A stretch of DNA of 64,000 nucleotides, from NCBI GenBank assembly GCA_023419605.1, contig JAEZXR010000119.1, forward strand, positions 1-64,000, given 5' to 3'. Shown in pieces: positions 41,897 to 58,907 of this stretch (position 1 is its first letter; each line of letters opens with the position of its first letter). Under the pieces are notes generated by a model. The model saw only the letters and a list, made by a program, of their open reading frames with translations. It was not told where the DNA came from and did not search any database. Source of the DNA: Bacillota bacterium (lineage in GTDB: Bacteria > Bacillota > Clostridia > Acetivibrionales > JAEZXR01). The translations under genes were made by a program, and so were the position numbers.

Positions 41897-44800
41897 TTGG
41901 ACCAGATCATAGTTCATATCATTCACGGCGACATATTTAACGAATTCGATATTGAAAAGCTCCATAAAGATGCAATATCGATTGGAAGCCACGAATCCGA
42001 TGATATCTTTATTCAGTCGGATGTACTAAAGGCCAAGCACATTGTCATAGAAAAGAGATTAGACTCCTGGATCATTCTGGTTCCCCTCTTCCGCGGTCTA
42101 ATCTATAAAGACAAAAAGATTGATAAAAAGTTTCTTGAGGATGGAGATACGTTTACTATTCCGAATTCAGGGGATGAGAACATCTCCATTATCATCCTGG
42201 ATAAGCAGGAGTTTACCGCCAGTAACAAATCCGCCCGGTTCACTCTGAAGGATATAAATGAAATATCCATAGGAAAAAGTGAAAACAATCACATTGTATA
42301 TCGCAACAAACAGGTATCGGATCATCATGCAACAATCAAGATTACAGCAGATGGAGAGTTTCACGCTATCGCCAAAGAGGGCAACATTATGCACGTCAAC
42401 GGCCGGAGGGTGGAAGAAAAGCTTTTGAATCCCGGCGATGTGATCCATATCTGGCGATATAAGATCATATTTGATAAGACGTACATAACGGTATTTAATC
42501 TTGGGGGCAATACGGTTTCGGTCAATCATTTAAGAGAAGTACTATCCATGGAATCAACCTATCCGTTCTTCCAGCGATCGCCCCGGTTGGAGCCGCTGCT
42601 GCCGGATGAAGAGATTTCGATTCCAGACCCCCCGGGTAAGAGCAATAAGCCCAATACCGATTTCTCTTTCTGGCTTCAATTGTTTTTACCGCCGATGGTA
42701 ACGGTGCTTGCAGCTTTCGCATATCCCAGATCCATAGTTTTTACACTTCCCATGGTAGGGTCTACCTTAACGATTTCTTTGACGAACTATGTTTCCCAAT
42801 TAAGAAATTATAAAAAACGTGAAAAAAAGCGTACCGAGAAGTACATGGCTATTATCGATCGAATTGATTCGGATTTGAATCGAATTAAAACCGAGCAAAA
42901 GGATATACTTTTACGAACGCATCCAAGTTTGGATGAAAGCATGCAAATGGCGGTGGAGAAATCCAGAAGGCTTTGGGAAAGGGCCCAGGATGATATTGAT
43001 TTTCTTGACACCCGACTGGGGATCGGAAAAGCTTCTCTGTGTGTTGAAATAAAATACGAGGATTCGGAGATTAATCTGGATGAAGACCCGTTAAAGGATC
43101 AACCGAAGAATTTATATGATAAATACAGTATTCTTGATGAGATCCCTGTGACAGTTCCTCTGTATGAAGCCTGCACAGTAGGGATCGTAGGCATACGAAG
43201 CAGTATTATCAGTATTGTAGGAAGTATTATTTTACAAATTGCTTCCCGTCACTCTTATGATGAGGTGAAGATCGTTACGGTTTTCCCCAATGAGGAACAG
43301 GAGGAATGGAACTGGATAAAATGGCTGCCCCATGTCTGGGATGAGAGCAGAAAAAAAAGGTACATTTCCTGTGAGGCTGCTTCAACCCATGAAATGCTCA
43401 CTACCTTTAATGATATCTTAAAAAAGCGTGAAAACATCTTGCTCCAAGCCAATGAAGACAAGATTGAGAAGTTTCTTCCCCATTATGTTATCATTCTGGC
43501 GGACAGGGAAATGACTGAAAACGAAGCCATTATGAAGATCCTGATTGAAAACAAGAGTGTACTGGGCGTGTCCACCATTTTTGCCTTTGACAGAATGGAA
43601 TATCTGCCGAAGAATTGCCGATACATCCTGGAAGTAGGGGAGGCTGCCGGTACTCTTTATGAAAAAAAGAAATCCTCAAAAAAGCTGTCCTTCACCCCGG
43701 ACGTACTATCCAGGGACCAGACCGAAGCCTTTGCAAGGACCATGGCGCCCATAAGGCTCAGACAAATCGGTGCTGCGCTGGATATACCGAACAGCGTACC
43801 CTTTCTTGACCTTTTCGATGTTAACACCGTTGAAGGTTTGAATGTTATTACAAAATGGTCCAATAGCGAAACCTTCAAATCGCTTGCGGTTCCCCTGGGA
43901 ATTCGCGATGGCGGTGAAAAGCTGCTGCTGGACCTCCATGAAAAGTATCATGGACCTCATGGACTCATTGCGGGAACAACCGGTTCCGGGAAAAGTGAAT
44001 TGATGCAGAGTTTGATTCTTTCTTTGGCGATTAATTTTCATCCCCACGATGTTGTATTCGTCTTAATTGATTATAAGGGTGGAGGAATGGCCAATTTATT
44101 CGAGGGGATGCCGCATTTGGTAGGAACCATTACAAACCTCGACGGAAACCAGATTACCCGATCCCTTATTTCTATAAAAAGTGAAATAAAAAAAAGACAG
44201 GGACTTCTGGGGGAATACAAGGTCAATCATATCGATGGATATCAGGCACTTTACAAGCAAGGAAAAGCCTCCAAGCCGCTGCCGCATTTATTTATAATCA
44301 TCGATGAATTTGCTGAATTAAAATCGGAACAGCCGGAATTTATGAGGGAGCTGGTAAGCGCGGCGAGGGTCGGAAGAAGCTTGGGTGTACACCTTATTCT
44401 GGCCACACAAAAGCCTTCCGGCGTAGTGGATGATCAGATTTGGAGTAATGCGAGATTCCGATTGTGCTTGAAGGTACAGGGAAGAGAGGACAGCAACGAG
44501 GTATTGAAGCGGCCGGATGCAGCAAATATCAAGCAGCCTGGAAGAGCCTATTTGCAGGTTGGAAATAATGAGATGTTTGAGCTTTTCCAGTCCGCCTGGA
44601 GCGGTGCGGAGTATTCCCCCAATGAAAATGGCAGCCAACGTGAAAAAACCTTGCTGAGGGTGGACCTGGAAGGGAAAAGAAAGCCTTTGTTTGGCTTTGA
44701 GAAGAAAACCAGGGAAAAAAGTGGAGTTACACAGATTGATGCTGTTATAAAGGAAATTATCAATACCGCCGCAAGAGAAAACATTCCAAAACTGGATGGC

Positions 44801-46483
44801 CCATGGCTGCCACCTTTGCCGGAGACGGTATACCTGGGGGACCTGTTGGGGAAGGATTTGAAAAAGTGGGATGGCTGCACCTGGGAAGCAGAGGACAAAT
44901 GGATTTGCCCTGTTATTGGGTTGGCAGACAGCCCTCATGAGCAAAAACAGTTCCCGGTTGCCATTGATTTGGGCAAGGAAGGGCATTTGCTGATATATGG
45001 GGCTCCCGGTACGGGAAAGACAACTCTTTTAAATTCATTAATTACTTCTTTGGTACTTACCTATTCACCGAATGATTTGAACCTGTACATTTTAGACTTC
45101 GGCGGCAGGACCTTCGGTATTTTCTCGGATTTGCCCCACGTCGGCGGAGTTGTCATGGGCGATGAGGATGAAAAGCTGAGTAAGCTGATGAAGCTGCTGA
45201 AAAAGGAAATTGAAAAGAGAAAACGGCTTTTTTCCGACGTGGGTGTGAGCAGTTTGTCCTCCTATAGACAGGCTGTAGGGAATAAAATGCCTGCAATCCT
45301 GCTGGTACTGGATAATTATTCGGCCCTGGCGGAATTATATCCCGATGTAGAGGAGTCCTTTGTACAACTGTCGAGAGAAGCGGGAAACTATGGGATTCAC
45401 CTGGTCATAACGGCCAATAGTACGTCGGCCATACGTTATAAGGTATCCCAGAACTTTAAACTGGCCATTGCACTTCAAATGACGGATAAGGGCGATTACA
45501 ACAGTATTATCGGTAAAACAAACGGACTTGAGCCATCCCCGGTGAATGGAAGAGGGCTTGTAAAGGCAGGCATTCCTGTTGAATTCCAGACTGCACTGCC
45601 TGTAGCCGGTGATAATGAAGCGGAAAGATCCGCAGAGATGAAGAGCTTGTTTGAGAAAGTCCGTGTTTCGTGGAAGGGGAGAAAAGCGAAAAGCATTCCG
45701 ATACTTCCGGACGTACTCAGATACAAGGATATGCTTGAATATGATGAGCTTAAGTCTGAGATACAGGCGGATAAAAATCTTATTCCTTTGGGTTTGACAA
45801 CGGAGGATTTGGACCCTGTATTTGTTGATCTCAGCGAGACGGGCTGTGTCATGGTGACAGGACAGATTCAAAGCGGAAGAACGAATGTTTTAAAATCCTT
45901 CATTTCATCCTTAAAGGAAAGGGAGGGATTAAAGAGCTGCTATATTATTGATTCCAACAATACCGGATTATATCAGTACAGGTCTGTTTTAGAGCCGAGA
46001 GCCTACATAACGGATGGAAGCGTATTATCTTCAGTGATGGAGGAGATTGTGGAAGAACTGGATTCAAGGAAGAATGACCTCATAAGCAGAAGAAGGGATT
46101 CGGAAACGGAATTCGATGAAAAGAAATATTTGGAAAGCTTGCCGCAAATCATTTTATTTATTGATGAATACAGTGATTTTATCAATATGGCGGATGAAGA
46201 TACCAAGAGCAGCATAGAAAAAATACTGAAAAAATATAAAGGTTTAAAATTCTGTATGGTTATCAGCGGTCTATCGGATGAAATATCTGCAAATAGTTAT
46301 GACTCCTTTACAAAAGCGATGATAGAACAGCAAAACGGGTTAGTGATTGGGGGTAGTTTCGATCAGCAAAGGGTTTTCAATTCCAGAATGCCTTATGCGG
46401 AACAGAGCAGGATTTTAGAAATCGGCGAGGCTTACTATATCACGAAAGGAAAAACCAGCAAAATCAAGCTGCCATTGGTGTAA
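41897..46483 (+). CDS. essC: Type VII secretion system FtsK/SpoIIIE-family ATPase EssC (YukBA-like) with N-terminal FHA domains
   Basis: 1528 aa. Two FHA-like segments at the N-terminus, 2 TM helices, then three P-loop ATPase domains (GxxGxGKSE; the second reads GTTGSGKSE with D-box IIIDEFAEL). Confidence 0.88.
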   Translation: MDQIIVHIIHGDIFNEFDIEKLHKDAISIGSHESDDIFIQSDVLKAKHIVIEKRLDSWIILVPLFRGLIYKDKKIDKKFLEDGDTFTIPNSGDENISIIILDKQEFTASNKSARFTLKDINEISIGKSENNHIVYRNKQVSDHHATIKITADGEFHAIAKEGNIMHVNGRRVEEKLLNPGDVIHIWRYKIIFDKTYITVFNLGGNTVSVNHLREVLSMESTYPFFQRSPRLEPLLPDEEISIPDPPGKSNKPNTDFSFWLQLFLPPMVTVLAAFAYPRSIVFTLPMVGSTLTISLTNYVSQLRNYKKREKKRTEKYMAIIDRIDSDLNRIKTEQKDILLRTHPSLDESMQMAVEKSRRLWERAQDDIDFLDTRLGIGKASLCVEIKYEDSEINLDEDPLKDQPKNLYDKYSILDEIPVTVPLYEACTVGIVGIRSSIISIVGSIILQIASRHSYDEVKIVTVFPNEEQEEWNWIKWLPHVWDESRKKRYISCEAASTHEMLTTFNDILKKRENILLQANEDKIEKFLPHYVIILADREMTENEAIMKILIENKSVLGVSTIFAFDRMEYLPKNCRYILEVGEAAGTLYEKKKSSKKLSFTPDVLSRDQTEAFARTMAPIRLRQIGAALDIPNSVPFLDLFDVNTVEGLNVITKWSNSETFKSLAVPLGIRDGGEKLLLDLHEKYHGPHGLIAGTTGSGKSELMQSLILSLAINFHPHDVVFVLIDYKGGGMANLFEGMPHLVGTITNLDGNQITRSLISIKSEIKKRQGLLGEYKVNHIDGYQALYKQGKASKPLPHLFIIIDEFAELKSEQPEFMRELVSAARVGRSLGVHLILATQKPSGVVDDQIWSNARFRLCLKVQGREDSNEVLKRPDAANIKQPGRAYLQVGNNEMFELFQSAWSGAEYSPNENGSQREKTLLRVDLEGKRKPLFGFEKKTREKSGVTQIDAVIKEIINTAARENIPKLDGPWLPPLPETVYLGDLLGKDLKKWDGCTWEAEDKWICPVIGLADSPHEQKQFPVAIDLGKEGHLLIYGAPGTGKTTLLNSLITSLVLTYSPNDLNLYILDFGGRTFGIFSDLPHVGGVVMGDEDEKLSKLMKLLKKEIEKRKRLFSDVGVSSLSSYRQAVGNKMPAILLVLDNYSALAELYPDVEESFVQLSREAGNYGIHLVITANSTSAIRYKVSQNFKLAIALQMTDKGDYNSIIGKTNGLEPSPVNGRGLVKAGIPVEFQTALPVAGDNEAERSAEMKSLFEKVRVSWKGRKAKSIPILPDVLRYKDMLEYDELKSEIQADKNLIPLGLTTEDLDPVFVDLSETGCVMVTGQIQSGRTNVLKSFISSLKEREGLKSCYIIDSNNTGLYQYRSVLEPRAYITDGSVLSSVMEEIVEELDSRKNDLISRRRDSETEFDEKKYLESLPQIILFIDEYSDFINMADEDTKSSIEKILKKYKGLKFCMVISGLSDEISANSYDSFTKAMIEQQNGLVIGGSFDQQRVFNSRMPYAEQSRILEIGEAYYITKGKTSKIKLPLV

Positions 46484-46568
46484 AAACATAAAATCGGCAG
46501 AAGCAGCAAGTCATTTATATAATTATAGCTGCTTCATAAAAATATCTACATATTCAATGATGGAGGGC

Positions 46569-46814
46569 ATGAAAATTATGGATATGGTTATCGTAACCAT
46601 CAAATCACAGGAAGGGAAGCAGCTGATGGATATAGAAGTTCCGTTTGATATTACGGCTGAAGAACTGGCCGCCTCACTGGCAAACTATATGCAGGTGAAA
46701 GAGATAAAAGGTTTGAGGGCAGAGCCGCTAAAAAGAGTGCTCATGAATCATGAGACACTTAAGGAGGCCGGCGTGTGGGAAGGAAGCCATATAATCATTG
46801 AGGGTGCCCATTAG
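46569..46814 (+). CDS. esaB: EsaB/YukD-like small ubiquitin-fold T7SS protein
   Basis: About 80 aa directly after essC; beta-grasp-like pattern (VIVTIKSQEGKQLMDIEVPFDITAEEL). RBS GGAGGG. Confidence 0.6.
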   Translation: MKIMDMVIVTIKSQEGKQLMDIEVPFDITAEELAASLANYMQVKEIKGLRAEPLKRVLMNHETLKEAGVWEGSHIIIEGAH

Positions 46815-46900
46815 AGGCAGCAAACCAAAAAGTCATAAATTTCCGGTTAATTCTAGATACCCGGATCGAATAAAAACAAAAAATGAAAGGGTGGTACATA

Positions 46901-47197
46901 ATGGCAATCGGTACTATAAGGATTACTCCCGAGCAAATAAGGGATGAGGCTACAAAGTTGAAAGGTCTTTCAGACCAGCATGATGGAGTTTTTAAACAAA
47001 TGACAAACTTGATTAATGCACTGAGCAGTCAATGGGAAGGTGCTGCCATTGAAGCATTTTTGCAGTCCTTTACCAATGCGAAGACGGAACTGGAGAAATT
47101 CAGAAAATCTATTGACGTGTTCGAAAAGGACATGAGAGAGTCTGCAAGAATACTGGAAGAAACAGACAAGGCGCTGGGTACACAGTTAAAAAGGTAG
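46901..47197 (+). CDS. esxA: WXG100-family protein (EsxA-like secreted T7SS substrate)
   Basis: 98 aa helical hairpin with WXG (SSQWEGAAIEAF) near the centre. RBS AAAGGGTGG. Confidence 0.8.
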   Translation: MAIGTIRITPEQIRDEATKLKGLSDQHDGVFKQMTNLINALSSQWEGAAIEAFLQSFTNAKTELEKFRKSIDVFEKDMRESARILEETDKALGTQLKR

Positions 47198-47270
47198 TTT
47201 GCTTGTGGCAATGGCTGCACACCTGTGTGTAGCCATTGCGAACCTTATTAAGTTTTGAAAGGTGGATGCT

Positions 47271-47567
47271 ATGACACGCATTAAAGTGAATGCAACTGAA
47301 TTTAAGGCAGTAGCAAAGAAATTCAATTCCGCCGCTGAACGCTGCTCCAAGATTCAGGAAAAATTAAAAACTGCGTCCGATGATTTATTGGGGCATTGGA
47401 GCGGCAAGAGCAAGGAGGCCTTTTCGACCGAGTATAACACGCTGTATAAAAATATGTATAATTACAAAGACGTGTTGGAGTGCATAGCAAAGGATTTGGA
47501 TACTATTGCGGTACGTTTTGAAGAAGCCGACAAGAGTTTGAAAGATGGCATGGAAAAGACTACGTAG
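47271..47567 (+). CDS. WXG100-like protein (second Esx-type partner)
   Basis: 98 aa helical protein with HWSGKSKEAF (WxG) at mid-sequence. Confidence 0.65.
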   Translation: MTRIKVNATEFKAVAKKFNSAAERCSKIQEKLKTASDDLLGHWSGKSKEAFSTEYNTLYKNMYNYKDVLECIAKDLDTIAVRFEEADKSLKDGMEKTT

Positions 47568-47600
47568 AACAAATTGTGTGATATAGGGTGGAGGATGAGA

Positions 47601-49211
47601 ATGAGTACGGCGTCCTTGAGCATAAATAGCCCGATCATCGGTATTTCCTTCGAAAGAATGAATGCAGCAAAGAAAAGAATATCCAGAGCCCGGGAAGAGG
47701 CACAGACAGAGAGGGACAGTGTATCCAGGGCCATCAGCAGCCTGCAGGTGGAAGATGGAAGGCTCAGGCAGCGAGCAGAGGCATTAAACAGCCTGCGAAG
47801 CAGAATGAATCGACAGATATCCGACCAGCAGCGAATGGAAGTGCATCTGGATCATGTAGTGCAAAGGTTCAAGGAGACAGATAACCTGTGTGCCCAGCGG
47901 ATAAAAACGGGTGGTTATGCAGTCAGAAAATCTGTGGGTCTGGGATCTGGCGGCGGGATATTCGGTAATGTCATAGGAGGACTGGTGTCTGTGGTTTCCA
48001 AGGGGATCACGGCGTGGAAAGATACCAATAAGCTGATTGCAGATGGAATCAAGTATGTTTTCCGCAATGAAATAGCGGCGGCAAAATATGCAGCAAAAGC
48101 TATAGGAGATTTCTATGAGAAGCATAAGGTAGTCATAAACAACATCGCTGCCATTGCCTTGGAAGCAGGCGCGATAGCCCTTACCGTGGCAGGAGTTGCA
48201 GCCCTTTCATTAACCGGTGTCGGATTGGTAGTGGCAGTTGGGATTGCAGCAGCCGGTATTGCCTACAGTGCAAGCAATATTGTAGATTCAGGCGTTAAGC
48301 TGTATAATTATTGTACAACAGGAGAAGAAGTGGGCTTTAATCCGCTGGAAAAAGGATTTCAGGCGGCACTTGGAGACGAACTTGGAACTAAGGCTTATAA
48401 TATTACCGGTATAGGAATAGCCGTTGCAGATATTATTTTAGGAGCAGGACTCATAAAGGCAGGAAGACAGGCGATAAAAGCTGCAAAGGCTGGTGAACTT
48501 CTTGATGAAGCGGGGGATATAGCTAAGACAATCGGGAAAGCTGAAGCGGCTGAACTTGCTAAACAAAAAGGCTCCAGATTTAGCCGGTATGTAATGCCTG
48601 AGGTGCGTTCTTTTGAAGATAATATCGATTCGGTGCTAAAAAAGTTAGACGTTGATAAAGAATACTTTAATAGCTTAAGGATGGAAAGAACAGAATTACT
48701 ATCGGAGATGGAAAGAAAGGTAGTACGAGATGTAAGGAATGCCGTTCCACCGATTGAAGAAGGGGTGCTAGTCCAAAAGGTTATTCCTCAGAGTGCCATT
48801 GAAGCCTATCAAAATGGTAGCCAGGCTTGGGCAAAGTCGATAAGGGGTTGTGTAACAAAAGCTGAAGATACAATGGCTTTGGATAACTATAAATCTATTT
48901 TTGATAACTTAAGACTGGACTATCCGGGAACCCGGTTTGGGGAACTGGATGATGCTTGCGGTGTATTAAGATTTCCTGCAAAAGATGGCGGTTGGTTCAA
49001 GACACCGTTTAATCCGGATATGGGCGGGAGCGCGATGGCTTCACAACCGTTTACAGGGAATGGATTTACAAAAAGTATAGAGAAGATAGTTCCGGAATTT
49101 GAAATGGTTGAGCAGGCCATTCCCAGGGGAACGGAGCTCTATAAAGTCACAAAAGATGGAGTAGAGGAGTTTATGGGAGTTTATAATGGAGTAAAATTTA
49201 TATTGCCATAA
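47601..49211 (+). CDS. T7SS-associated polymorphic toxin 1: conserved N-terminal helical domain + glycine-zipper membrane segments + TTGEE pre-toxin motif + unique C-terminal domain
   Basis: The first ~300 aa are about 70% identical to the ORF at 52892, then diverge completely. RBS GGGTGGAGG. Sits downstream of essC and esx genes. Confidence 0.7.
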   Translation: MSTASLSINSPIIGISFERMNAAKKRISRAREEAQTERDSVSRAISSLQVEDGRLRQRAEALNSLRSRMNRQISDQQRMEVHLDHVVQRFKETDNLCAQRIKTGGYAVRKSVGLGSGGGIFGNVIGGLVSVVSKGITAWKDTNKLIADGIKYVFRNEIAAAKYAAKAIGDFYEKHKVVINNIAAIALEAGAIALTVAGVAALSLTGVGLVVAVGIAAAGIAYSASNIVDSGVKLYNYCTTGEEVGFNPLEKGFQAALGDELGTKAYNITGIGIAVADIILGAGLIKAGRQAIKAAKAGELLDEAGDIAKTIGKAEAAELAKQKGSRFSRYVMPEVRSFEDNIDSVLKKLDVDKEYFNSLRMERTELLSEMERKVVRDVRNAVPPIEEGVLVQKVIPQSAIEAYQNGSQAWAKSIRGCVTKAEDTMALDNYKSIFDNLRLDYPGTRFGELDDACGVLRFPAKDGGWFKTPFNPDMGGSAMASQPFTGNGFTKSIEKIVPEFEMVEQAIPRGTELYKVTKDGVEEFMGVYNGVKFILP

Positions 49212-49225
49212 TAGGAGGTAATCAG

Positions 49226-49630
49226 ATGAAAGAAGGTAGCTATGCAGTTTACAAAGGAAAGATTTATGAGGCTGACCTGTCAACAGATCCAAAGGAAAAG
49301 GGGCTGATCATGCTGATCTCATATGATGAATCGGACTTAAACAATGGTTTCGTCAGGGATAGGATATTTGGCATAATTAAAAATGTTAGAAGGGATGAAT
49401 TAACTACCGCATATTATCTTCAAACCTATGCTAAAGTTCAAGGCGTTAGTGTTAAAGTCACCGAGATACAGGGAGATAACATCTACATATATTCGAACGA
49501 TTACAATACTTTTCAGAAGTTGGGTATGGAGCAGTACGAGCCCCTTGTATACCATAAATGGATAAAGAAGGATGCTGTTGAGACAATGTGGGAGGAAAAG
49601 AAGCCGATTTGGGGTTTCATGAATGCATAG
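49226..49630 (+). CDS. Candidate immunity protein for toxin 1 (134 aa)
   Basis: Starts 15 nt after the toxin stop and has an AGGAGG RBS. Small acidic cytoplasmic protein; the call rests on position only. Confidence 0.45.
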   Translation: MKEGSYAVYKGKIYEADLSTDPKEKGLIMLISYDESDLNNGFVRDRIFGIIKNVRRDELTTAYYLQTYAKVQGVSVKVTEIQGDNIYIYSNDYNTFQKLGMEQYEPLVYHKWIKKDAVETMWEEKKPIWGFMNA

Positions 49631-49642
49631 AGAAGGTGCTGC

Positions 49643-49969
49643 ATGGTTCAACAATATGAAAATGAATTTTCTATAGGCTCAAAGGATGGAGAAATATTAT
49701 TTTACGAAGATAAAAGCTGCAAGATTAATTTTACAGTGATTGATTTCAGAGATTCCGTATTATGGATTGCCGTTGAAAAAACAGTGGAAAAAGCAAGCGA
49801 TGAAGAACGAAAGCTTTCAAAAGAGCAAAAATTCGAATTCTACAGGCGCTTGGCTTCCTACTTCAAATTACATGGCTTTAATAGCGGGATCTGTGTGGAT
49901 GACTTTAAAGAGGTCATTCAGGAGGATATGGAAAATATAGATTGTACCAGGGACATATTGGAACTATGA
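49643..49969 (+). CDS. Small hypothetical protein (108 aa), possible immunity or orphan module
   Basis: Tightly packed after the previous gene; no recognisable motifs. Confidence 0.4.
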   Translation: MVQQYENEFSIGSKDGEILFYEDKSCKINFTVIDFRDSVLWIAVEKTVEKASDEERKLSKEQKFEFYRRLASYFKLHGFNSGICVDDFKEVIQEDMENIDCTRDILEL

Positions 49970-49987
49970 TCATTAGCTGGAGGGAAT

Positions 49988-50539
49988 ATGGTAAAAGTAA
50001 CAACGGAACTGTGTGAAGACCAGATAGAAATGGGCTGGAAATATATAAGCTTTTCCAGGGAGAAAGAAAAATTAGTATTCTTAGTCGAGCCAATGATGAA
50101 TAAGGAAGATATCGCTTATATACCTGGTGATAATGCATGGAAAGAAAGCGCGCCCTATTGGGCCAAGGACAAAAAGGAAGAAATATTGCGTACAATAAAG
50201 TCGGTACCATGGAATCGCAGGATACAGTGGATAGAGGATGAGGATACGCTAATTACAGCGGTTCCGAGAGAAAAAAGTCCGTTATTGAAGGGCACCCTGG
50301 AAACAACGGAGGCAGGACAGGAGTTTTTGAAGTTGAATTTATTTGATCCCGGATCGGAAATACCCTTTGAACAGGTTCATGAGTTGTGGCGCGTTCTGGA
50401 GAAAAGATTTGCGGAGCAAGTCCGGGGTGAAGTTACAATTTACGCCAGTACAATCGTTGAAGGTAGTGTTTTTGAAGGCGTTTCGCTGCCTGTGTTGATG
50501 GAAAATAAAAACGCAGTTTTAACGATAGTAGGAAATTGA
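49988..50539 (+). CDS. Hypothetical protein (183 aa)
   Basis: Clean ORF with a GGAGGG RBS and acidic composition. Confidence 0.45.
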   Translation: MVKVTTELCEDQIEMGWKYISFSREKEKLVFLVEPMMNKEDIAYIPGDNAWKESAPYWAKDKKEEILRTIKSVPWNRRIQWIEDEDTLITAVPREKSPLLKGTLETTEAGQEFLKLNLFDPGSEIPFEQVHELWRVLEKRFAEQVRGEVTIYASTIVEGSVFEGVSLPVLMENKNAVLTIVGN

Positions 50540-50787
50540 GAACAGGGAAGTCGGTTATTTTATTTATTTCTTGTAAACCCGTAGTATCACGTTGTTAATA
50601 GTAAGAGTTACTGCTTTATTTCTTATGCTGTTAATTTTGCGATTTTAGCAGTTGTCAGAAGAGATGAAGGCAATAGCTTTATTTTATGATTCCATTTTTT
50701 AAAATATTTTCAATATAAAGGCTGTGAAGATGAACATTATTATTTTATATAAATGCAGTTCCAAAAAATGTAAAGGGGATGATAAAA

Positions 50788-51153
50788 GTGAACCGTTACC
50801 AGATAAAGTCCAGTATCAACGGAGCGAATAATGCCATTGGGCATATTCGGCAAGCAATCAATCATGCCGGGCAGGAAAGCGGTTTTTTGCGTGACGCCTC
50901 CGTGGAAATCCAGAATGGATATAAGGGTGCGTCAAGTGCCGGCATCAGTGAGAAAATCACAAGCTACAGCAGAGAAACAAGCAATCAATCCAATGAGATG
51001 TCCAACGAAATACGAAGCATACAGTCTATTGTCAGTGATCTTCAATATCTTGACAGACAGTTGGAAGAACAGGAAAGAAGGGAAAGAGAAGCACGGGAAA
51101 GAGCTGCAAGAGAAGCCAGAGAAAAAGCGGGAGGACTAAGCTATGGACGCTGA
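50788..51153 (+). CDS. Small helical protein with C-terminal RERE repeat (possible T7SS Lap-like accessory)
   Basis: GTG start 9 nt after GGGGA. About 120 aa helical protein ending in EEQERREREARERAAREAREKAGG. Overlaps the following TPR gene. Confidence 0.45.
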   Translation: MNRYQIKSSINGANNAIGHIRQAINHAGQESGFLRDASVEIQNGYKGASSAGISEKITSYSRETSNQSNEMSNEIRSIQSIVSDLQYLDRQLEEQERREREARERAAREAREKAGGLSYGR

Positions 51154-52498
51154 GGTGAAAAAACTAAGTGCAGAGGAATTAAATAAAATGGGACTGGTTT
51201 TGATGCAGGCCGAGCAAGTGGAGGAAGCATTAAAATACTTTAACAGAGCTCTTGAAGCGGATTCGGAATATTTACAATCCTATTATAATAAAGCAATGCT
51301 CTATTTAGTTACGGAAGAGTATGATGAAGCCCTGGCGTGCTATGATGAAATTTTGTGCAAAGATCCAAAACAAGGGGAAGCGTGCTATCATAAAGCCAAT
51401 CTGTTATTTTTCTACAAGGAAAATAGCAAGGAAGCGGTGGAGTTATATAACAAAGCCATTTGTCTAGGTGAAAAAAATGAAGACATTTACTATAACCTGG
51501 GATTATGCATGGAAGCTTCCGCTCTGAATGAAGAGGCACTTAAATGGGTTGAAAGAGCAAGCAGAATCAATGAAAAGCGAACCGATATTTTGTTAAAGAA
51601 ATCAGAATTGCTGACTTCATTGAAAAGATATGAAGAAGCCATCGAGTGCTATGATCAAGTGCTGATGATTGAATCGGATAACGAAGAGGCTTTCCATTTT
51701 AAGGCCATCCTTCTGGGAGAGACGAAGCGGACGGAGGAAGCTTTTACGGTATTGGATAAAGCTGCGGAAATCATTGGGGACAAGGCGATATTCGAATATG
51801 ACAGAGCCTTGCTTTATGAAAACCAGGGTCAATATGAAGAAGCTTTATCCGCCGTAGATAAGGGATTGGAGCTCGATGACCGCAATACCCTGCTGATCGT
51901 AAAGAAGGGATCACTGCTTGCCATGGCCGGCAATTATGAAGGAGCCAAGAACGTGTTCGATAAGGTTTCAGAAATAGAGCCGGAAAATGTCGAGGGAGAG
52001 TTCAATAAGGCAAGTATACATATTTTGTTGAAGGAATTTGAAGAAGCGGACAAGCTATTTGAAGCCATCCTCCAAAAGTGTCCGGATGAAAATCCCTATA
52101 AAATTAATTCCTATTATTACAAAGGCCTTGTGCTTCAAGGGGCGGGCAAATCCCAAGAGGCTAAAAAAGCCTATGAAACGGCGCTAACGAACTATAGTGT
52201 CCTTTCTCTTACTTACACGCACGATGCACAGCTTATGCTTCTGAAGGCAAATACCCTCAGGGACCTGCAGAGGTATCAGGAGGCGGAAGAGCTGTATGAA
52301 TATGTCATTGACCTGAATAAAGATATGGCGGAAGCGCATCTCATGCGGGCAAAAAATTATATTTACCTTGGGAAATTGAAGGAAGGGAAAAAGGAAATTG
52401 ATCTTGCATTGGCCATAAATCCGGCCTATAAGGGTATTGTTGAAATTGATGAAGAGTTAAAAAGGGTTTTTAACAGCCATGAATTTGGGAAGGTGTAA
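51143..52498 (+). CDS. Tetratricopeptide-repeat (TPR) protein
   Basis: About 12 tandem 34-aa repeats with W/LG/Y/A/F/A/P spacing (e.g. AMLYLVTEEYDEALACYDEIL). RBS GGGAGGA. Confidence 0.8.
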   Translation: MDAEVKKLSAEELNKMGLVLMQAEQVEEALKYFNRALEADSEYLQSYYNKAMLYLVTEEYDEALACYDEILCKDPKQGEACYHKANLLFFYKENSKEAVELYNKAICLGEKNEDIYYNLGLCMEASALNEEALKWVERASRINEKRTDILLKKSELLTSLKRYEEAIECYDQVLMIESDNEEAFHFKAILLGETKRTEEAFTVLDKAAEIIGDKAIFEYDRALLYENQGQYEEALSAVDKGLELDDRNTLLIVKKGSLLAMAGNYEGAKNVFDKVSEIEPENVEGEFNKASIHILLKEFEEADKLFEAILQKCPDENPYKINSYYYKGLVLQGAGKSQEAKKAYETALTNYSVLSLTYTHDAQLMLLKANTLRDLQRYQEAEELYEYVIDLNKDMAEAHLMRAKNYIYLGKLKEGKKEIDLALAINPAYKGIVEIDEELKRVFNSHEFGKV

Positions 52499-52791
52499 TG
52501 ATGGATAAGATTGAGATCGATATTTCAAAAATACGGGACACCGTGACATTGTACAGGAGTTGCAGGACTGAATTGGAGGAAATGCTTAAGGACCTGAATG
52601 CCAGCATTGAGAAGTTAAAAGCCAATTGGGAGGGGGAGGCTCAGAAGAGTTTTTTTGAAAATCATTTCCCGACATTTTCCGATAGCGTAGCGAAGCACAT
52701 AAGGATGATCGCTTTTCTTGAAGGAGAGCTCCAGTCCACGGCAAATGACTTCCAGGACCTGGACAGAGAGCTACGGTCAAAGCTCCTTTAA
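52498..52791 (+). CDS. WXG100-like small helical protein (NWEGEA motif)
   Basis: 97 aa; WxG lies between two helices. The start overlaps the TPR stop (TAATG). Confidence 0.6.
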   Translation: MMDKIEIDISKIRDTVTLYRSCRTELEEMLKDLNASIEKLKANWEGEAQKSFFENHFPTFSDSVAKHIRMIAFLEGELQSTANDFQDLDRELRSKLL

Positions 52792-52891
52792 AAATGTTTA
52801 TTGGCATAGTTAATGAAATAAGGCTATTAAAGCTTTTTAAGCAGTATGGAGGATGCCAGGTAGCCTGGCATGTAATGGGTGGGGGATGAGA

Positions 52892-54412
52892 ATGAGTGGA
52901 GCAGCTTTAAGCATGAACAGTTCAATCATAGGTATATCCTTCGACAGAATGAATGCAGCAAAGAAAAAAATATACAGAGCACAAGAAGAAGCACAAGGGG
53001 AGCGGGACAGCCTGTCAAGGGCCATCAGCAGTCTGCAGGTAGAGGATGGCAGGCTCAGGCAGAGAGCAGAAGCACTAAACAGGCTGCGCAGCAGGATAAA
53101 TAACCGAATGGCTGAACTGCAAAGAATGGGAAACCATGTAGAATATGCAGTGCAAAGATTCAAGGAAGTGGATAACCAACGGGCGCAGAAGATAAAGACA
53201 GGAGGCTGTGAAGTCAGAAAAGCTGTGGGTATTCCCAAGGAAAGTGGAATATTCGGCAATATCGTCAGCGGCTTGGTTTCTATTGTTGATAGGGGAGCAA
53301 GGGCATGGTACAATACAAATAAGGCAGTGATCGATGGGGCCAAGTTTGTCTTTGGCAAGGGATGGGAAGCTATAAAATATGGTGCAAAAGCGGTAGGAGA
53401 TTTCTATGAGGATCATAAGGTGCTGATCAACAACATCGCTACCATTGCACTGGAAGCAGCATCGATCGCGCTGACAGTGGCAGCCGTTACCGCTCTTTCG
53501 GTAACGGGTGTGGGATTGGTGGTGGCTGTGGGGATTGCAGCAGCCGGGATCGCATACAGTGCCAGCAACATCATCGATTCAGGCGTTAAAATCTATAATT
53601 ATTGTACAACCGGTGAGGAGAAAGGCTTTAACCCGCTGCAAAAGGGATTCCAGGCAGTGCTGGGCGACGAGCTGGGTGAGAAGGTATATAATTATGCCGG
53701 TATCGCTGTGGCTGTGGCAGATGTGGGCGCCGGGGCTGTCAGCATGCTAAAGGCGGCCAAGCAGGCAAAGACTGCCTTTAGCCTTACAAAATCGGTGAAA
53801 GAAGCGGGCAATGTTCTAAAAGAGTTCGGGCAAAAAGGGGTACAGCAACTGAAGAATACGGCAAAGGAGATGATCGAGAGCGGGAGCCAGCTGTTTAAAA
53901 AGTCTGAAAGTTTGGTAGATGCGGCTACAGGGACCAGGTTCTCCGATAAAATGCTGGATTTTGGCAAGGTTGATATGCCTGTGGTGAAGGAGACCCCGGT
54001 ACAAAGTAACTTTAAGGCTGTCATGAATGGGTCGGATACGGGAGTAAGTAAGGTTAACAGCAAAATAGAGATTGTTGATAAAAATAATAAAACTTTCAAA
54101 ATAAATGATTGGAGTGACTACCCTGACGATTATGTTCCTTTGCCAGATAAAAATAAAACTTGGGAGTTACTTGAGGGAGATGCCTATAACGATGCAAGAA
54201 AAGCAGCCAATAATGCAAATGCTAAAATTACTAAGCAAAATCCTGACATCAGAGCAAACGAACTTGAGATTCATGAGGTAGAACCTGTTAAATTTGGGGG
54301 AAGTCCGACTGACCTTGCTAATAAAGTAGGCATTCAAGGAAAGGCACATAGAAAATATGTTACCCCTTGGTGGAATAGAATCAGGGATGCTGTCAAAGAG
54401 GAACTGAAATAA
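52892..54412 (+). CDS. T7SS-associated polymorphic toxin 2: same N-terminal module as toxin 1, C-terminal HNH/beta-beta-alpha-Me-type nuclease domain
   Basis: N-terminal 300 aa are paralogous to 47601-49211. The C-terminus LEIHEVEPVKFGGSPTDLANKVGIQGKAHRKYVTPWWN fits the H..E..P...GG.....N.......H pattern of an HNH-like nuclease. Confidence 0.72.
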   Translation: MSGAALSMNSSIIGISFDRMNAAKKKIYRAQEEAQGERDSLSRAISSLQVEDGRLRQRAEALNRLRSRINNRMAELQRMGNHVEYAVQRFKEVDNQRAQKIKTGGCEVRKAVGIPKESGIFGNIVSGLVSIVDRGARAWYNTNKAVIDGAKFVFGKGWEAIKYGAKAVGDFYEDHKVLINNIATIALEAASIALTVAAVTALSVTGVGLVVAVGIAAAGIAYSASNIIDSGVKIYNYCTTGEEKGFNPLQKGFQAVLGDELGEKVYNYAGIAVAVADVGAGAVSMLKAAKQAKTAFSLTKSVKEAGNVLKEFGQKGVQQLKNTAKEMIESGSQLFKKSESLVDAATGTRFSDKMLDFGKVDMPVVKETPVQSNFKAVMNGSDTGVSKVNSKIEIVDKNNKTFKINDWSDYPDDYVPLPDKNKTWELLEGDAYNDARKAANNANAKITKQNPDIRANELEIHEVEPVKFGGSPTDLANKVGIQGKAHRKYVTPWWNRIRDAVKEELK

Positions 54413-54431
54413 AAAGGAAGGATGTAGATGC

Positions 54432-54851
54432 ATGGATTATAAAAGTAATAAATACTTTAAAGATCTTGATTTTGGTAATCATCATCCTATTACAATTGAA
54501 GATTTGAACGAAGTCGAAGATGCTGTGGGGATTAGTTTCCCACAGCAGTACAGAGAATTTATGCTATTTTCTAATGGTGCAGTTGGTGAAATTGGTAACA
54601 GCTATTTAACCATATGGGAACTTGAAGATGTTCAGGATTTTTATGAAGATTGCTGTGAAGGTGATTTGGCTAATATAGTTCTATTTTCATCTGATGGTGC
54701 AAAGGTCGGCTATGGGTTTGATAAAAGCAAAAGTGGAACTATTGTTTCAGTACCGTTAGATTCACTTGAAATGGACTATGTAGAATTTTGTGCCAATACA
54801 TTTGAGGAATTTATGGAATATTTATATAATTATAACTGGGATGAAGAATAG
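54432..54851 (+). CDS. SUKH/SMI1-KNR4 family immunity protein
   Basis: ISFPQQYREFMLFSNG motif (FP..Y..FL..NG) and about 140 aa size; lies directly after the toxin with an AAAGGAAGG RBS. Confidence 0.75.
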   Translation: MDYKSNKYFKDLDFGNHHPITIEDLNEVEDAVGISFPQQYREFMLFSNGAVGEIGNSYLTIWELEDVQDFYEDCCEGDLANIVLFSSDGAKVGYGFDKSKSGTIVSVPLDSLEMDYVEFCANTFEEFMEYLYNYNWDEE

Positions 54852-54888
54852 CTTTAGAAATTATCAACCGAAGGGTGAAGGTGCTAAT

Positions 54889-55137
54889 ATGAGTAGTGAA
54901 AAACAGCATAACGCATACGATGAAGCAAAAAAAAATTGTAACATTGCAAATAGGCAATTAAGAAAAAATGACCTAACTTTAAAAGGATTGCAAATACACG
55001 AAATCGAGCCTATAAAGCTTGGGGGCAGTCCTACTGATACATCAAATAAAGCTTTTCTTCCTCGTGATAAACACGCAAAGGTAGTTGTATGGTGGAACAA
55101 AAAGATAAGAGAAGTTAGGAAAAGTATGGGGGAATAA
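54889..55137 (+). CDS. Orphan HNH-like toxin C-terminal cassette (82 aa)
   Basis: NAYDEAKKNCNIANRQLRKNDLTLKGLQIHEIEPIKLGGSPTDTSNKAFLPRDKHAKVVVWWN is homologous to the last ~85 aa of toxin 2. Own RBS AAGGGTGAAGG. The longer ORF from 54790 overlaps the upstream immunity gene. Confidence 0.5.
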   Translation: MSSEKQHNAYDEAKKNCNIANRQLRKNDLTLKGLQIHEIEPIKLGGSPTDTSNKAFLPRDKHAKVVVWWNKKIREVRKSMGE

Positions 55138-55139
55138 GA

Positions 55140-55553
55140 GTGGATAATAAGTACGGTAATCTGTTAGACAAAATTGAGTTGAATCTTCCCTGCTCCATGG
55201 AAGCTATTAAAGAAGTAGAAAAAAATCTTGGATTTACTTTTCCAAAGGATTACTTGGACTTTCTTCTAACAAGTAACGGGGGCGAAGGCTGGGTGGGAGA
55301 AGATTCGTATCTGTCACTATGGAAAGTAGATGAAATTGTGGCTTTAAATGAAGCATATGAGGTAAGTGAGTTTGCTCCAGGCCTTATACTATTTGGCTCA
55401 GATGGAGGGTTAGATGCCTATGGGTTTGATATAAGGGATGAGAGTACGGCAATAGTTGAAATACCATTTATAGGTATGGATTTAAGGGAAGTAAAGAATT
55501 GTGGAAACACTTTTGTGGAGTTCTTAGAGTATTTATTACACAGAGGTTTTTAA
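55140..55553 (+). CDS. SUKH/SMI1-KNR4 family immunity protein
   Basis: FTFPKDYLDFLLTSNGGEG motif; 137 aa. Confidence 0.75.
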   Translation: MDNKYGNLLDKIELNLPCSMEAIKEVEKNLGFTFPKDYLDFLLTSNGGEGWVGEDSYLSLWKVDEIVALNEAYEVSEFAPGLILFGSDGGLDAYGFDIRDESTAIVEIPFIGMDLREVKNCGNTFVEFLEYLLHRGF

Positions 55554-55556
55554 TCC

Positions 55557-55979
55557 GTGTGGGAAAAACTATTGTCGGATATTAGAAAAGTCGAGGAAAA
55601 ATACGGGGATTCCCTTAATACTCCAGCGTCAAACGAGCAAATCGAGCTTTTAAAAAAAATAGTTAAGGAAAAGTTTGGTCACGTTTTACCTGAGCAATAT
55701 GTCAATTTTTTAAAAACGGTTAATGGGCTTGAATTTAACGGGTTTATATTCTATGGAGTTGATAGTTCATTGCTTGAGGTTCAAAATAATCAAACAGCTT
55801 ATGGATATGTTGATACAAATGAAATTTGGTACGAAAATGAACATCAAAAGCAATATATGTTTTTTGGAGAAAGTAATATAAGCGGGGATTGCTTTGATTT
55901 ATCAAACGGAGTTTATGTTGAACTTGATAACCCATTAGGGACATTAATGTATACATTTAATGATTTTAACTCTATATAG
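55557..55979 (+). CDS. SUKH-superfamily immunity protein (third copy)
   Basis: HVLPEQYVNFLKTVNGLEFNG motif; 140 aa; GTG start 3 nt after the previous stop. Confidence 0.65.
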   Translation: MWEKLLSDIRKVEEKYGDSLNTPASNEQIELLKKIVKEKFGHVLPEQYVNFLKTVNGLEFNGFIFYGVDSSLLEVQNNQTAYGYVDTNEIWYENEHQKQYMFFGESNISGDCFDLSNGVYVELDNPLGTLMYTFNDFNSI

Positions 55980-56470
55980 GGAAAGGCACTTAAAGACAGT
56001 CTTCTTTGATAAAGTGCAACCAAGAAAGTAAATATATCAGACAAAGTCTTAATGGAGATATTCTCCATTGAGACTTTGTTTATTACTCCCATTGGCAAAA
56101 CGTTCAAAGCCGAAAATTCCCTTTATTAAATAGATAACAGGGATTTCTTTTAAATAATTACAAACTATTACAAAAAATGGTATTTAACAATAATTTTCAC
56201 AAAAAACTGGTCCATAAAAAACATTATTTATCGAAATTTGTCCAAAATAGCTTGACATAAATGCAAGTTTTTGGTAATGTATTTATAAGGACAAATGTTG
56301 ATGAAATCTCAGAAGCACTTGCTAACTGTAGTTTTAGTTAACAGTGTTCTATTCAAAAAAGCAGTAATGAATCTTTATTTATCTATGACCCGGAGGGTCT
56401 TCAAATATAAATGTCACCACACCGAATAGTTCTAAAGTGAATGATTGTTTTGATCAGGGAGTGGAATGTC

Positions 56471-57553
56471 ATGCATATCAAAAAAGTATTTCTTATAATA
56501 GCAGCCTGTGTGCTGATACTGTTATTATGTGTAAATGTATTTCAATTTGTATTTTGGAGTGGAAAAGCCAAACAACTGGAGGCCTCTTATACGGAACAGA
56601 TAGGAGAACTGGAGGAAAGGCTCGGAAGTATTGGACCCATGGCTCAGGCGTGGACTGTAGCCAAACAGGTAACACCGGGCCAAAAAATCACACAGGAAGA
56701 TCTGAAACCCATTCAAGTGTTGAAAAAATCTATGGAAGATGCATACATAACAAATCCAAAAGAAATCCTCGGTAAATTCTATAAAATATCTATTCTTCCG
56801 GGAACGCCTATCACAAAAGGTCTGGTTATGGAAGAAAAAATCAAAAACTCATTGAGACAGTATGATGTTGTAGCCAATACGATTCCCATCGGGCTGAAGG
56901 CCGGAGATTATATTGATTTCAGGTATCTGATGCCCAAAGGCGAAGATTATATAGCGATGACGCACAAACGGGTGGAAGCGGTACATACAAAAACCGTAAC
57001 TCTTCACCTGTCGGAAGAAGAAATCCATGTTTATCAAAGCATGCTGGTAGACTACTTTTTAAAGGAAGGCAGCTTGCTTTATATGACAAAATATCTAGAA
57101 CCGGGTGTTCAGGAAGCAGCAGAAACCTACTATCCAGTCGATGAAAATATTTTAAACGTAATGTTGATCGATCCAAATGTAATTGATAAGCTTGAGGCTG
57201 CTGTCATTAAAGGCAGCAGGGATATATTAAACACGACAGATAAAAGTATTGAAGATCTCATCAGAAGCAAGATAAGCACCGGCCGGGCATCGATTCAGGG
57301 AAGTGTAGATGCTGCAAACGCTGTATATTGGGATAGATTGGAAAAGGCAAATAAAGAGAAGGATTTACAGCAAGGGGAAGTTACAAGTGTACCACCCCAG
57401 CAGCAACCGCAAGCAGAGGCAAAACAATCTCAAACTCCTGTGACGGGCAATCCATCGGCCAACACTTCAGCACCACCGGCAAAGACGGAACCACAGGAGA
57501 ATGGAAATACAAATAATGGGAAACTGATTATGCAGGAAGGGATCGTAGAATGA
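56471..57553 (+). CDS. CpaB/RcpC-like Flp-pilus assembly protein (N-terminal TM helix, SAF-like domain, Gln/Pro-rich C-terminal tail)
   Basis: TM helix, then a segment VAKQVTPGQKITQEDLKPIQV..ILGKFYKISILPGTPITKGLV typical of the SAF domain of CpaB. Low-complexity PPQQQPQAEAKQSQTP tail. Confidence 0.6.
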   Translation: MHIKKVFLIIAACVLILLLCVNVFQFVFWSGKAKQLEASYTEQIGELEERLGSIGPMAQAWTVAKQVTPGQKITQEDLKPIQVLKKSMEDAYITNPKEILGKFYKISILPGTPITKGLVMEEKIKNSLRQYDVVANTIPIGLKAGDYIDFRYLMPKGEDYIAMTHKRVEAVHTKTVTLHLSEEEIHVYQSMLVDYFLKEGSLLYMTKYLEPGVQEAAETYYPVDENILNVMLIDPNVIDKLEAAVIKGSRDILNTTDKSIEDLIRSKISTGRASIQGSVDAANAVYWDRLEKANKEKDLQQGEVTSVPPQQQPQAEAKQSQTPVTGNPSANTSAPPAKTEPQENGNTNNGKLIMQEGIVE

Positions 57554-58901: not shown

Positions 58902-58907
58902 GTTCAC

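Follow-up and report, generated by a model that had tools for sequence, protein, structure and literature searches.

What kind of protein is encoded by two long open reading frames (ORFs) that lie downstream of an essC gene and share about 300 N-terminal residues before their sequences part, and by what machinery might such proteins leave the cell? The two genes, which we call tox1 (536 aa, positions 47601–49211) and tox2 (506 aa, 52892–54412), are found in the first 64,000 nucleotides of contig JAEZXR010000119.1 of a Bacillota bacterium (Clostridia; Acetivibrionales), the stretch referred to below as the window. Each is an ORF with a GGAGG-type ribosome-binding site just 5' of its ATG, and all genes from essC to the SUKH genes behind tox2 are tightly packed on the + strand, to which their coordinates refer. 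We consider it likely that tox1 and tox2 belong to the polymorphic antibacterial toxins and have three parts, an N-terminal head, a hydrophobic middle module and a C-terminal tip, and that the system for type VII secretion (T7SS) that would export them is a non-canonical Clostridia system belonging to the group of EssC, YukD and WXG100 variants of Garrett, Higginson & Palmer 2024 (Microlife, PMC11217815).

The first-pass annotation of this locus had described two ORFs with a common N-terminus of ~300 aa and unrelated C-termini. The translations it quoted were confirmed, and BLASTP aligns tox1 with tox2 at 212/320 identities (66%, E = 5e-135) and detects no similarity beyond approximately residue 320. 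At the DNA level the two genes are 74% identical over 850 nt, from 15 nt 5' of the ATG to a point at about codon 277 where the similarity fades, and one third or more of the identical residues are specified by different codons. Because so many identical residues use different codons, tox1 and tox2 are old paralogues under purifying selection and not the products of a recent duplication.

The head comprises residues 1–112 of each protein (tox1, 47601–47936; tox2, 52892–53227), and the two heads are 72% identical and carry the same motifs. AlphaFold2 (AF2) predicts a helical hairpin for the tox1 head, with helices at residues 17–47 and 53–112 separated by a turn at 48–52 reading SLQVEDG; predicted local distance difference test (pLDDT) values are 85–95 for residues 15–105, and confidence is low everywhere past the hairpin. 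That low-confidence part begins with a Gly-rich linker or amphipathic segment, defined from alignments, which in tox1 spans residues 113–140 (47937–48020) and ends at a conserved A-W. Alignments confine family-wide conservation to residues 1 to ~140, where the family signature reads IGIS(F/Y)..M, LQVxD(G/S)RLR and IDYxxRRFxEVDxxCAxRIK. Helix 2 bears an FxxxD motif, in the form RFxE(V/T)D across the family and RFKETD in tox1, where F90 and D94 are the motif residues; F90, D94 and A98 are invariant among 32 diverse family members.

Profile comparison relates this hairpin to WXG100 proteins. Aligned by hhalign to the WXG100 proteins of the window and related loci, the family profile matches end to end over 93 columns (probability 87–88%, E = 3–4e-6, score 37); by comparison, one hundred shuffles of the columns scored 10.3 ± 1.9 (16.3 at most), and the alignment in reverse scored 16.6. 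The alignment places the head turn over WxG and RFxExD over the FxxxD near the WXG100 C-terminus. The turn itself has no Trp, as it reads SLQVEDG in tox1 and LQVxD[GS] across the family, with no W-x-G; when the turn is checked for LxG instead, L48 is conserved, and the Gly is neither at +2 nor conserved family-wide. Searched against Pfam and NCBIfam, including the LXG, WXG100, WXG100_2, T7SS_signal and PT-TG models, the heads of the window proteins have no match at E ≤ 1, the heads of 57 family members match none of these models either, and TIGR03930 and PF25547 are likewise unmatched. Sequence searches of the PDB with the proteins, the head profile and a tox2-tip profile returned nothing meaningful. 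From the alignments we conclude that the head is not an LXG domain and belongs to the WXG100 superfamily as a remote member without the Trp. The first-pass annotation had offered a WXG-related hairpin followed by a PT-TG-like domain; the hairpin is borne out by the AF2 model and the hhalign probabilities, and the PT-TG part falls away, with no match to PF14449 in the window proteins or in 57 family members. By eye, and as an impression only, the middle module of some relatives appears to contain TG. In LXG systems, the FxxxD of Lap1 resembles YxxxD/E, the motif for export in the T7SSa, and mutation of the motif in LapD1 abolishes secretion of TelD (PMC10801868); by analogy, the FxxxD of the head may also serve export.

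The same evidence bears on the idea of a highly divergent LXG domain as the head, which hidden Markov models (HMMs) would miss and which would make tox1 and tox2 ordinary LXG toxins of a T7SSb. LXG toxins are built on the same logic, in that small helical partners are encoded 5', an N-terminal helical domain leads into a middle domain and a toxin, and there is an immunity gene; both folds, LXG and WXG100, are hairpin-based; the conserved L48 at the hairpin turn invites comparison with Leu41 of TelA (PMC10801868); and the window EssC passes the Firmicutes EssC model. Nevertheless, PF04740 matches neither tox1 nor tox2 at E ≤ 1 and none of the 57 family members at E ≤ 1e-3, nor is there an LXG-type match in NCBIfam, in agreement with the first-pass view that the head is not canonical LXG. 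The confidently predicted fold is a single hairpin of ~95 aa (AF2 prediction), against ~220 aa, nine helices and two subdomains in TelA (PMC10801868), and the profile match runs end to end along WXG100 proteins of ~100 aa. Furthermore, the small proteins encoded 5' of the toxins are true PF06013 members and not Lap proteins (the one preceding tox1, WXGb, scores 17.3 bits on TIGR04197, where the cut-off is 26), and EsaA, EssA and EssB are absent from the window. We therefore regard an LXG identity as quite unlikely.

Behind the head and linker, residues 141–290 of tox1 (48021–48470) form a hydrophobic middle module that hydropathy marks as a probable transmembrane hairpin, and the corresponding residues 141–290 of tox2 (53312–53761) share it. 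Both toxins contain the GVGLVVAVGIAAAGIAYSASNI segment (residues 206–227) and the NYCTTGEE.GFNPL.KGFQA block (235–255), so that the membrane segments and conserved block reported in the first pass are indeed common to the pair. Residues 177–228 make up a hydrophobic small-xxx-small stretch of ~50 aa whose Kyte-Doolittle 19-residue means reach 2.3; a third segment of hydrophobic character, though weaker, follows at 267–289. The Pfam and NCBIfam scans gave nothing relevant for the module. Of 41 full-length members, 29 carry a hydrophobic module directly past the head, and it is not always the same module: that of tox1 is recognisable in P0061, a remote family member from Clostridium acetobutylicum ATCC 824 (AAK78029.1), and other middle modules occupy this place in the relatives P0002–P0007. 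Middle modules differ between subgroups and fall into at least five classes, a lower bound that we retain because single-linkage clustering fused many classes where the clustered segment overlapped the conserved linker.

Middle modules also pass from one head to another. An AHH toxin encoded beside essC in Anaerobacterium chartisolvens (L012:16612–17769) has an unrelated head and a middle module that is shared with P0028, P0040, P0023 and P0024 (47% over 113 aa, with a 'LGTG...D.RD' region). Since a P0028-type middle module thus stands behind an unrelated head, head, middle module and tip shuffle independently, and the shared ~300 aa, treated in the first pass as one module, resolve into two, the head and the hydrophobic middle. 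Between middle module and tip, tox2 carries a pre-toxin junction motif, DFGKVDMPVVKETPVQ (residues 356–371, 53957–54004), which occurs in P0004–P0007 as well; the form DFGKV..P.V.ETPVQ is common to tox2 and these four proteins despite their different middle modules and tips. Judged by this distribution, the motif is likely to be a recombination joint, and it is also a candidate processing site.

The tips are the presumed toxins. That of tox1 (residues 321–536, 48561–49211) is unrelated to that of tox2, has no Pfam or PDB match and found a single homologue, of 134 aa, in a word-indexed search of 5.8 billion proteins. Fifteen nucleotides past the tox1 stop begins a gene for a 134-aa protein (49226–49630), the candidate immunity protein for tox1; at a syntenic locus in a Logan assembly (L004) this protein carries the precomputed annotation PF27768 (UCP033725), with no match in our own Pfam scan. 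Two further small ORFs of 108 and 183 aa follow in tight packing on the same strand (49643–50539); neither matches a Pfam or NCBIfam family, and additional immunity genes, or orphan ones, may be what they represent.

The tox2 tip (54032–54412) again matches nothing in Pfam, or in the PDB by sequence or profile. Its motif L.IHE.EP.K.GGSPTD..NK...H looks HNH-like by eye only, and we do not claim an HNH assignment. Directly behind it lies a SUKH/SMI1-KNR4 gene (54432–54851; PF09346, E = 6e-16), the candidate cognate immunity gene for tox2, and then an orphan tip with no head (54970–55137 within 54790–55137, with homology at 54970–55122), which tblastn aligns at 48% to the last ~50 aa of tox2 (E = 3e-10) and which shares 31 invariant alignment positions with the tox2 tip. 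Two more SUKH genes (55140–55553 and 55557–55979; PF09346, E = 6e-18 and 1e-7) complete this AT-rich region (GC 0.35), the first of them trailing the orphan tip directly, as in the classic displaced cassette of tip and immunity gene. Thus, of the traits by which polymorphic toxins are recognised (Zhang et al. 2012, PMC3482391), the locus has a conserved N-terminus with unrelated tips, an immunity gene 3' of each toxin (in the case of tox1, a candidate by position) and an orphan cassette.

Relatives supply what the window tips do not. Proteins with the same head end in one of six Pfam toxin domains (Endonuclea_NS_2, LHH, WHH, EndoU, Colicin-DNase or NTP_transf_2) and are then followed by SUKH, YezG-like or Imm74 genes. 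Together with the SUKH genes and orphan tip behind tox2, this bears out the first-pass proposal of a trafficking domain joined to variable toxin tips.

A different division of labour would make the glycine-zipper-like hydrophobic module the weapon, a depolarising or pore-forming element like TelE or TspA, with the C-termini in accessory roles such as receptor binding or regulation. The long small-xxx-small stretch is conserved in tox1, tox2 and P0061, none of which has a recognisable enzymatic domain at its C-terminus, and TelE needs a glycine zipper for its toxicity (PMC10434224). Against this, the same head is followed in many relatives by a bona fide nuclease tip, and relatives may have another middle module or none. 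The SUKH immunity proteins are soluble and typical for nuclease toxins (Zhang et al. 2012, PMC3482391), whereas depolarising toxins require membrane proteins for immunity (DUF443; PMC12478183), and the orphan cassette copies the tip and an immunity gene, not the hydrophobic module. A membrane-active weapon of this kind is accordingly unlikely, and we continue to regard the tip as the presumed toxic part.

How widespread is the head? It is rare: out of 1.84 billion proteins, a profile of residues 1–140 retrieved 53 clusters formed at 50% identity, with E-values down to 1e-72 and 33 of the clusters at E ≤ 1e-10. The word-indexed search of 5.8 billion proteins found seven relatives only, and a contig scan with very specific peptide patterns found one metagenome-assembled genome (MAG). 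Because those patterns are so specific, the contig scan says little about taxonomic spread, and the profile search is the better estimate. Some public names attached to members are misleading, such as 'putative nucleic acid-binding Zn-ribbon protein' for the C. acetobutylicum protein and 'EndoU domain-containing protein [Candidatus Pelagibacter ubique]' for a member on a 1.9-kb MAG contig, which is probably a binning contaminant.

The genomic settings of these relatives are diverse. The Logan assembly holds a near-identical locus, with EssC, YukD, WXGa, WXGb and tox1 in the order of the window. In C. acetobutylicum (L007) the order is PP2C (TsfF), DUF6382-FHA (TsfJ), TadZ-ARD/AAA_31 (TsfV), YukD (TsfB), EssC (TsfC), WXG100 (TsfA), a second WXG100, P0061 and several small genes, and on a metagenome contig (L009) a family toxin likewise adjoins a T7SSf set. 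A tetratricopeptide repeat (TPR) gene, a WXGc-type WXG100 gene and a toxin gene stand in this order in the window, at L001 (there followed by SUKH) and at L010, where a large protein with Ig repeats and a kinase-TPR protein accompany the cassette and recall the T7SSj. Orphan toxin/immunity pairs occur away from any T7SS gene at L002 and L005. On a further contig (L011:1–17209), the member P0018 (10001–11584; head E = 1e-27) is prophage cargo between tail genes and a lysis/integrase module.

In the window, the gene order supports the first-pass placement of both toxins downstream of essC with a WXG100 gene before each. The essC/tsxC gene (41897–46483) encodes a T7SS ATPase of FtsK type, 1528 aa long, whose N-terminus holds an FHA domain (TIGR03928, 1460 bits where 778 is the cut-off; three PF01580 matches; PF00498). 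Aligned with C. acetobutylicum TsfC along its entire length, it shows 38% identity; the closest named EssC is that of A. chartisolvens (Clostridia, Oscillospiraceae; 62%), the next that of Acetivibrio thermocellus (47%). A yukD/esaB-like gene for a ubiquitin-fold protein (TsxB) follows (46557–46814, its real start possibly at 46578; PF08817, 28.1 bits where 27 is the cut-off), and its product is 64% identical to that of a 78-aa gene of A. chartisolvens. Next come WXGa (46883–47197; PF06013, E = 3e-14), a core WXG100 protein of EsxA/TsxA type that is the orthologue of the WXG100 protein in the TsfA position (27%, E = 3e-11, at L007 and 32% at L009), and WXGb directly 5' of tox1 (47262–47567; PF06013, E = 4e-16). 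WXGb has an FxxxD motif, FEEAD, close to its C-terminus and is 31% identical (E = 2e-17) to the WXG100 protein encoded directly 5' of the C. acetobutylicum family member; it is a candidate cognate partner or targeting factor.

The second cassette opens with p124 (50779–51153), a conserved accessory gene for a small helical protein with a charged, E/R-rich tail, whose orthologues are p108 of C. acetobutylicum (E = 3e-6) and a protein of a related MAG locus, L013 (35%, E = 2e-12). The C-terminus of these proteins (window 50779–51153; L013:15622–16014; L007:13673–13999) is a run of alternating E and R, a perfect (ER)n repeat at L013, and the gene stands beside the TPR gene from the window organism to C. 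acetobutylicum; p124 may be a fourth small partner. The TPR gene (51143–52498) encodes a conserved accessory protein of 451 aa (TPR_2, E = 8e-44) whose best non-generic resemblance is to the LcrH/SycD chaperone model, where it falls below threshold (86 bits, cut-off 105). With a 444-aa protein at the C. acetobutylicum T7SSf locus it shares 51% identity, which exceeds the 38% identity of EssC, and it is a candidate chaperone or adaptor. WXGc, a WXG100 protein of a second type encoded 5' of tox2 (52498–52791; PF06013, E = 9e-14), has the FxxxD motif FQDLD, is 70% identical to the WXG100 protein encoded 5' of P0007 at L001 and 35% identical to those of L007 and L010, and has no detectable similarity to WXGb. 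A scan for promoters and terminators gave results no better than shuffles. Upstream in the window lies a gene of the YtxC sporulation family.

Comparison with L013, whose EssC is 68% identical, shows which parts of the locus are dispensable. That locus keeps EssC, YukD, WXGa, WXGb, a p124-like gene, the TPR gene, WXGc and the downstream cluster and lacks both toxin/immunity blocks, including all of the small ORFs on the tox1 side; WXGb is thus kept where its neighbouring toxin is missing. Alignment of L013:14581–17914 with the window delimits insertion/deletion islands at 47568–50778 (~3.2 kb) and 52792–56440 (~3.6 kb), exactly past WXGb and WXGc. Because L013 keeps the flanking genes and has neither block, the toxin/immunity blocks behave as variable islands.

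Downstream of the SUKH genes, at 56441–63563, the window has a Tad-pilus-like set consisting of a CpaB/SAF-like protein (370 aa), a 191-aa protein, a divergent ParA/MinD-like protein (259 aa), a TadA-family ATPase (612 aa), a polytopic membrane protein (668 aa) and a pilin-like protein (188 aa). Such a set also occurs at L012:926–9804, L013:17914–24298, L001:11546–13070 and L004:13277–20382, and it is linked to this EssC clade in three arrangements: 3' of the toxins in the window, directly past WXGc at L013, and 5' of essC in A. chartisolvens. The same unexplained adjacency of T7SS and Tad genes was recorded for the T7SSg and T7SSh by Garrett et al. 2024 (PMC11217815). The set could be a functional partner or a piece of the machinery, perhaps the membrane components that are otherwise missing. 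A giant glycine-rich protein (>2200 aa, PF12810 ALK_LTK_GRD) is encoded near the T7SS and Tad-like genes at L001:3991–11334 and L013:1–3712 and is absent from the window.

This arrangement admits a reading in which tox1 and tox2 are not secreted at all and are membrane-anchored parts that serve, in a structural or regulatory role, either the T7SS or the neighbouring Tad-like apparatus. Both proteins have predicted transmembrane segments, and both are flanked by the essC/WXG100 genes on one side and on the other by a Tad-like cluster that is conserved in its linkage to the EssC clade. At the L013 locus, however, the EssC, WXG100, TPR and Tad-like genes are the same and neither protein is encoded, which marks them as dispensable cargo, and hypervariable C-termini, nuclease tips in relatives, immunity genes, orphan copies and prophage-borne copies are all at odds with a structural part. 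We hold such a role to be very improbable.

With respect to the type of machinery, EssC, an EsxA-type WXG100 protein and EsaB/YukD are all present, and the FHA-bearing EssC, the TsfA-type WXGa and the TsfB-type YukD are T7SSf-like traits. A bolder proposal is that the FHA-EssC, YukD, three WXG100 types, TPR protein and five-gene Tad-like set form an undescribed T7SS subtype whose dedicated toxins, with head, TPR chaperone and transmembrane hairpin, amount to a self-contained delivery device that would move cytoplasm-acting toxins out of the producing cell and on through the membrane of the target. We consider this unlikely; if true, the subtype would offer a tractable model for the unsolved entry of T7SS toxins into Gram-positive prey.

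Several results weigh against the explanation we prefer, that of three-part toxins exported by a non-canonical T7SS. With respect to the head, the WXG100 model PF06013 itself gives no match at E ≤ 1 and matches none of the 57 family members. Foldseek searches of the PDB with full-length and head-only models gave only non-significant E-values (all >0.3); the top matches by probability and target-normalised TM-score (TMt) include Bacillus anthracis EsxB (TMt ~0.8) and Helicobacter pylori HP0062, but because any helical hairpin also matches unrelated coiled coils, such as those of Vipp1, ESCRT-III and the arms of seryl-tRNA synthetase, these matches do not discriminate and are simply consistent with a WXG100 fold. 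Both window tips match no known toxin domain. The membrane module is not obligatory, as 12 of the 41 full-length members have no strongly hydrophobic segment, and at L002, L005 and L011 there is no WXG100, TPR or EssC gene within 10 kb.

Similar tension surrounds the machinery and the partners. A Pfam search of all sizeable ORFs in the 64 kb detected no EsaA, EssA or EssB family, and because these are absent the window system is not assigned to the canonical T7SSb. Likewise, tblastn with the TsfF, TsfJ and TsfV proteins of L007 and L009 returned nothing in the window at E ≤ 1e-3, nor were there such Pfam matches; these three could be encoded elsewhere in the genome, and on these data the system is placed in neither the T7SSb nor the T7SSf. 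The first-pass annotation had envisaged a T7SSb targeting module: the type VII connection stands, and the T7SSb label is narrower than the data allow. Since members of the family occur in T7SSf, T7SSj-like, orphan and prophage settings, the module is found without T7SSb-specific genes, which, by the refuting finding named in the first pass, formally counts against the T7SSb and not against type VII systems generally. Finally, because WXGb and WXGc are dissimilar while the two heads are 72% identical, one-to-one cognate pairing is not obviously right. This suggests, by analogy with an LXG domain and its two Lap proteins, that a shared multi-partner complex may be formed instead.

The paralogy, the modularity, the remote WXG100 homology, the FxxxD motif, the linkage to EssC, WXG100 and TPR genes, and the toxin and immunity domains of relatives are the observations on which our proposed mechanism builds; export, pairing, the membrane and chaperone roles and toxicity are what we infer from them. 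The head (residues ~1–112) would be a divergent WXG100 hairpin that has lost the WxG Trp and kept an FxxxD motif resembling an export arm. It would pair with WXGb and/or WXGc to form an Esx-like helical bundle, which EssC may recognise as it does EsxA/EsxB, PE/PPE and LXG/Lap complexes. The TPR protein would act as a chaperone that keeps the middle module soluble in the producing cell, and the middle module (~141–290) would insert into the membrane of the target cell and carry the tip across. A translocation role has been proposed for the LXG 'middle domain' of toxins that act in the cytoplasm, which requires a DUF4176 chaperone (PMC12478183). The tip, a nuclease in many relatives, would then kill, and it would be neutralised by the product of the downstream gene, which is a SUKH protein in the case of tox2 and the 134-aa protein in that of tox1.

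Discovery of T7SS toxins in Bacillota leans almost wholly on HMMs for LXG (and WXG100), both of which miss this head, and because the head is invisible to these models the toxins that bear it are now annotated as hypothetical. A defined head would provide a search handle for substrates of the newly recognised non-canonical T7SSs in Clostridia, including that of the industrial organism C. acetobutylicum, and draws attention to the conserved TPR protein and to two types of WXG100 protein, which are candidates for a part in targeting or as chaperones. As compact proteins of head, membrane module and tip, these toxins would also be useful for the study of type VII effector recognition and of membrane crossing by nuclease tips. 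The general picture of polymorphic toxins is unchanged.

Among known systems, the closest is the T7SSf. The paper of Garrett et al. 2024 (PMC11217815) lists WP_010963371.1 and WP_077893465.1 as predicted Clostridium substrates and describes, for the C. acetobutylicum locus, a predicted substrate and several candidate immunity genes. P0061 stands where that account puts the predicted substrate and may be the same protein; because a member occupies this position, the family has probably been noticed already. The window shares with the C. acetobutylicum locus the WXGa, WXGb and WXGc types, a p124-like gene and the TPR protein (51%), and differs in lacking TsfF, TsfJ and TsfV, in having YukD past EssC and in an EssC only 38% identical to TsfC. 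That paper gives its substrates only as predicted, and we found no head domain, WXG100 relationship, motif or modularity defined in it.

The LXG toxins (TelA, TelB and TelC, YxiD and EsaD-type toxins, with Lap and DUF4176 proteins) are alike in their helical targeting domain, small partners encoded 5', optional hydrophobic or amphipathic middle domain, variable toxin, immunity gene and orphan cassettes (PMC10801868, PMC12478183). In the TelA-LapA3-LapA4 complex, the LXG domain of ~200 aa forms two subdomains that each bind one Lap (PMC10801868). The window head, in contrast, is half as long, is predicted to be a single hairpin and carries FxxxD on the toxin itself and not only on a Lap; its putative partners are genuine WXG100 proteins, the accessory protein is a TPR protein instead of DUF4176, and EsaA, EssA and EssB are lacking in the window. 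Membrane segments within an effector that needs a cytoplasmic chaperone are likewise known from TelE and TspA and from T6SS prePAAR effectors with Eag chaperones, where glycine-zipper or transmembrane helices are embedded in the protein. In TelE and TspA, however, the membrane segment is the toxic C-terminal domain, whereas the window segment is internal with a separate tip behind it, and the likeness to the type VI secretion system (T6SS) is an analogy only.

The Esx, PE/PPE and EspB proteins of the T7SSa resemble the head in combining a hairpin with an export motif, YxxxD/E, just past the hairpin, and they are secreted as heterodimers with a WxG-bearing partner; phylum and machinery differ, and the window proteins have FxxxD as their motif and carry the hairpin at the front of a large toxin, as its head. 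The trafficking heads WxG, LxG and LDxD were listed in 2012 on HNH, LHH, WHH and other such toxins with SUKH immunity (Zhang, de Souza, Anantharaman, Iyer & Aravind, PMC3482391), and the design and the repertoire of toxins and immunity proteins are the same here; the window head differs from those WXG heads in being Trp-less and invisible to HMMs, in forming a tight family of its own and in having a transmembrane-like module behind it. We conclude that tox1 and tox2, whose head matches neither the LXG nor the Pfam WXG100 model and would work like both, are a rare variant of a known T7SS polymorphic toxin design and not a new kind of system. The novelty lies in the definition of a head family that HMMs do not see, in its motif and its relationship to WXG100, in a modularity of three tiers with a transmembrane-like module inside, and in the conserved company of TPR protein, WXGb and WXGc.

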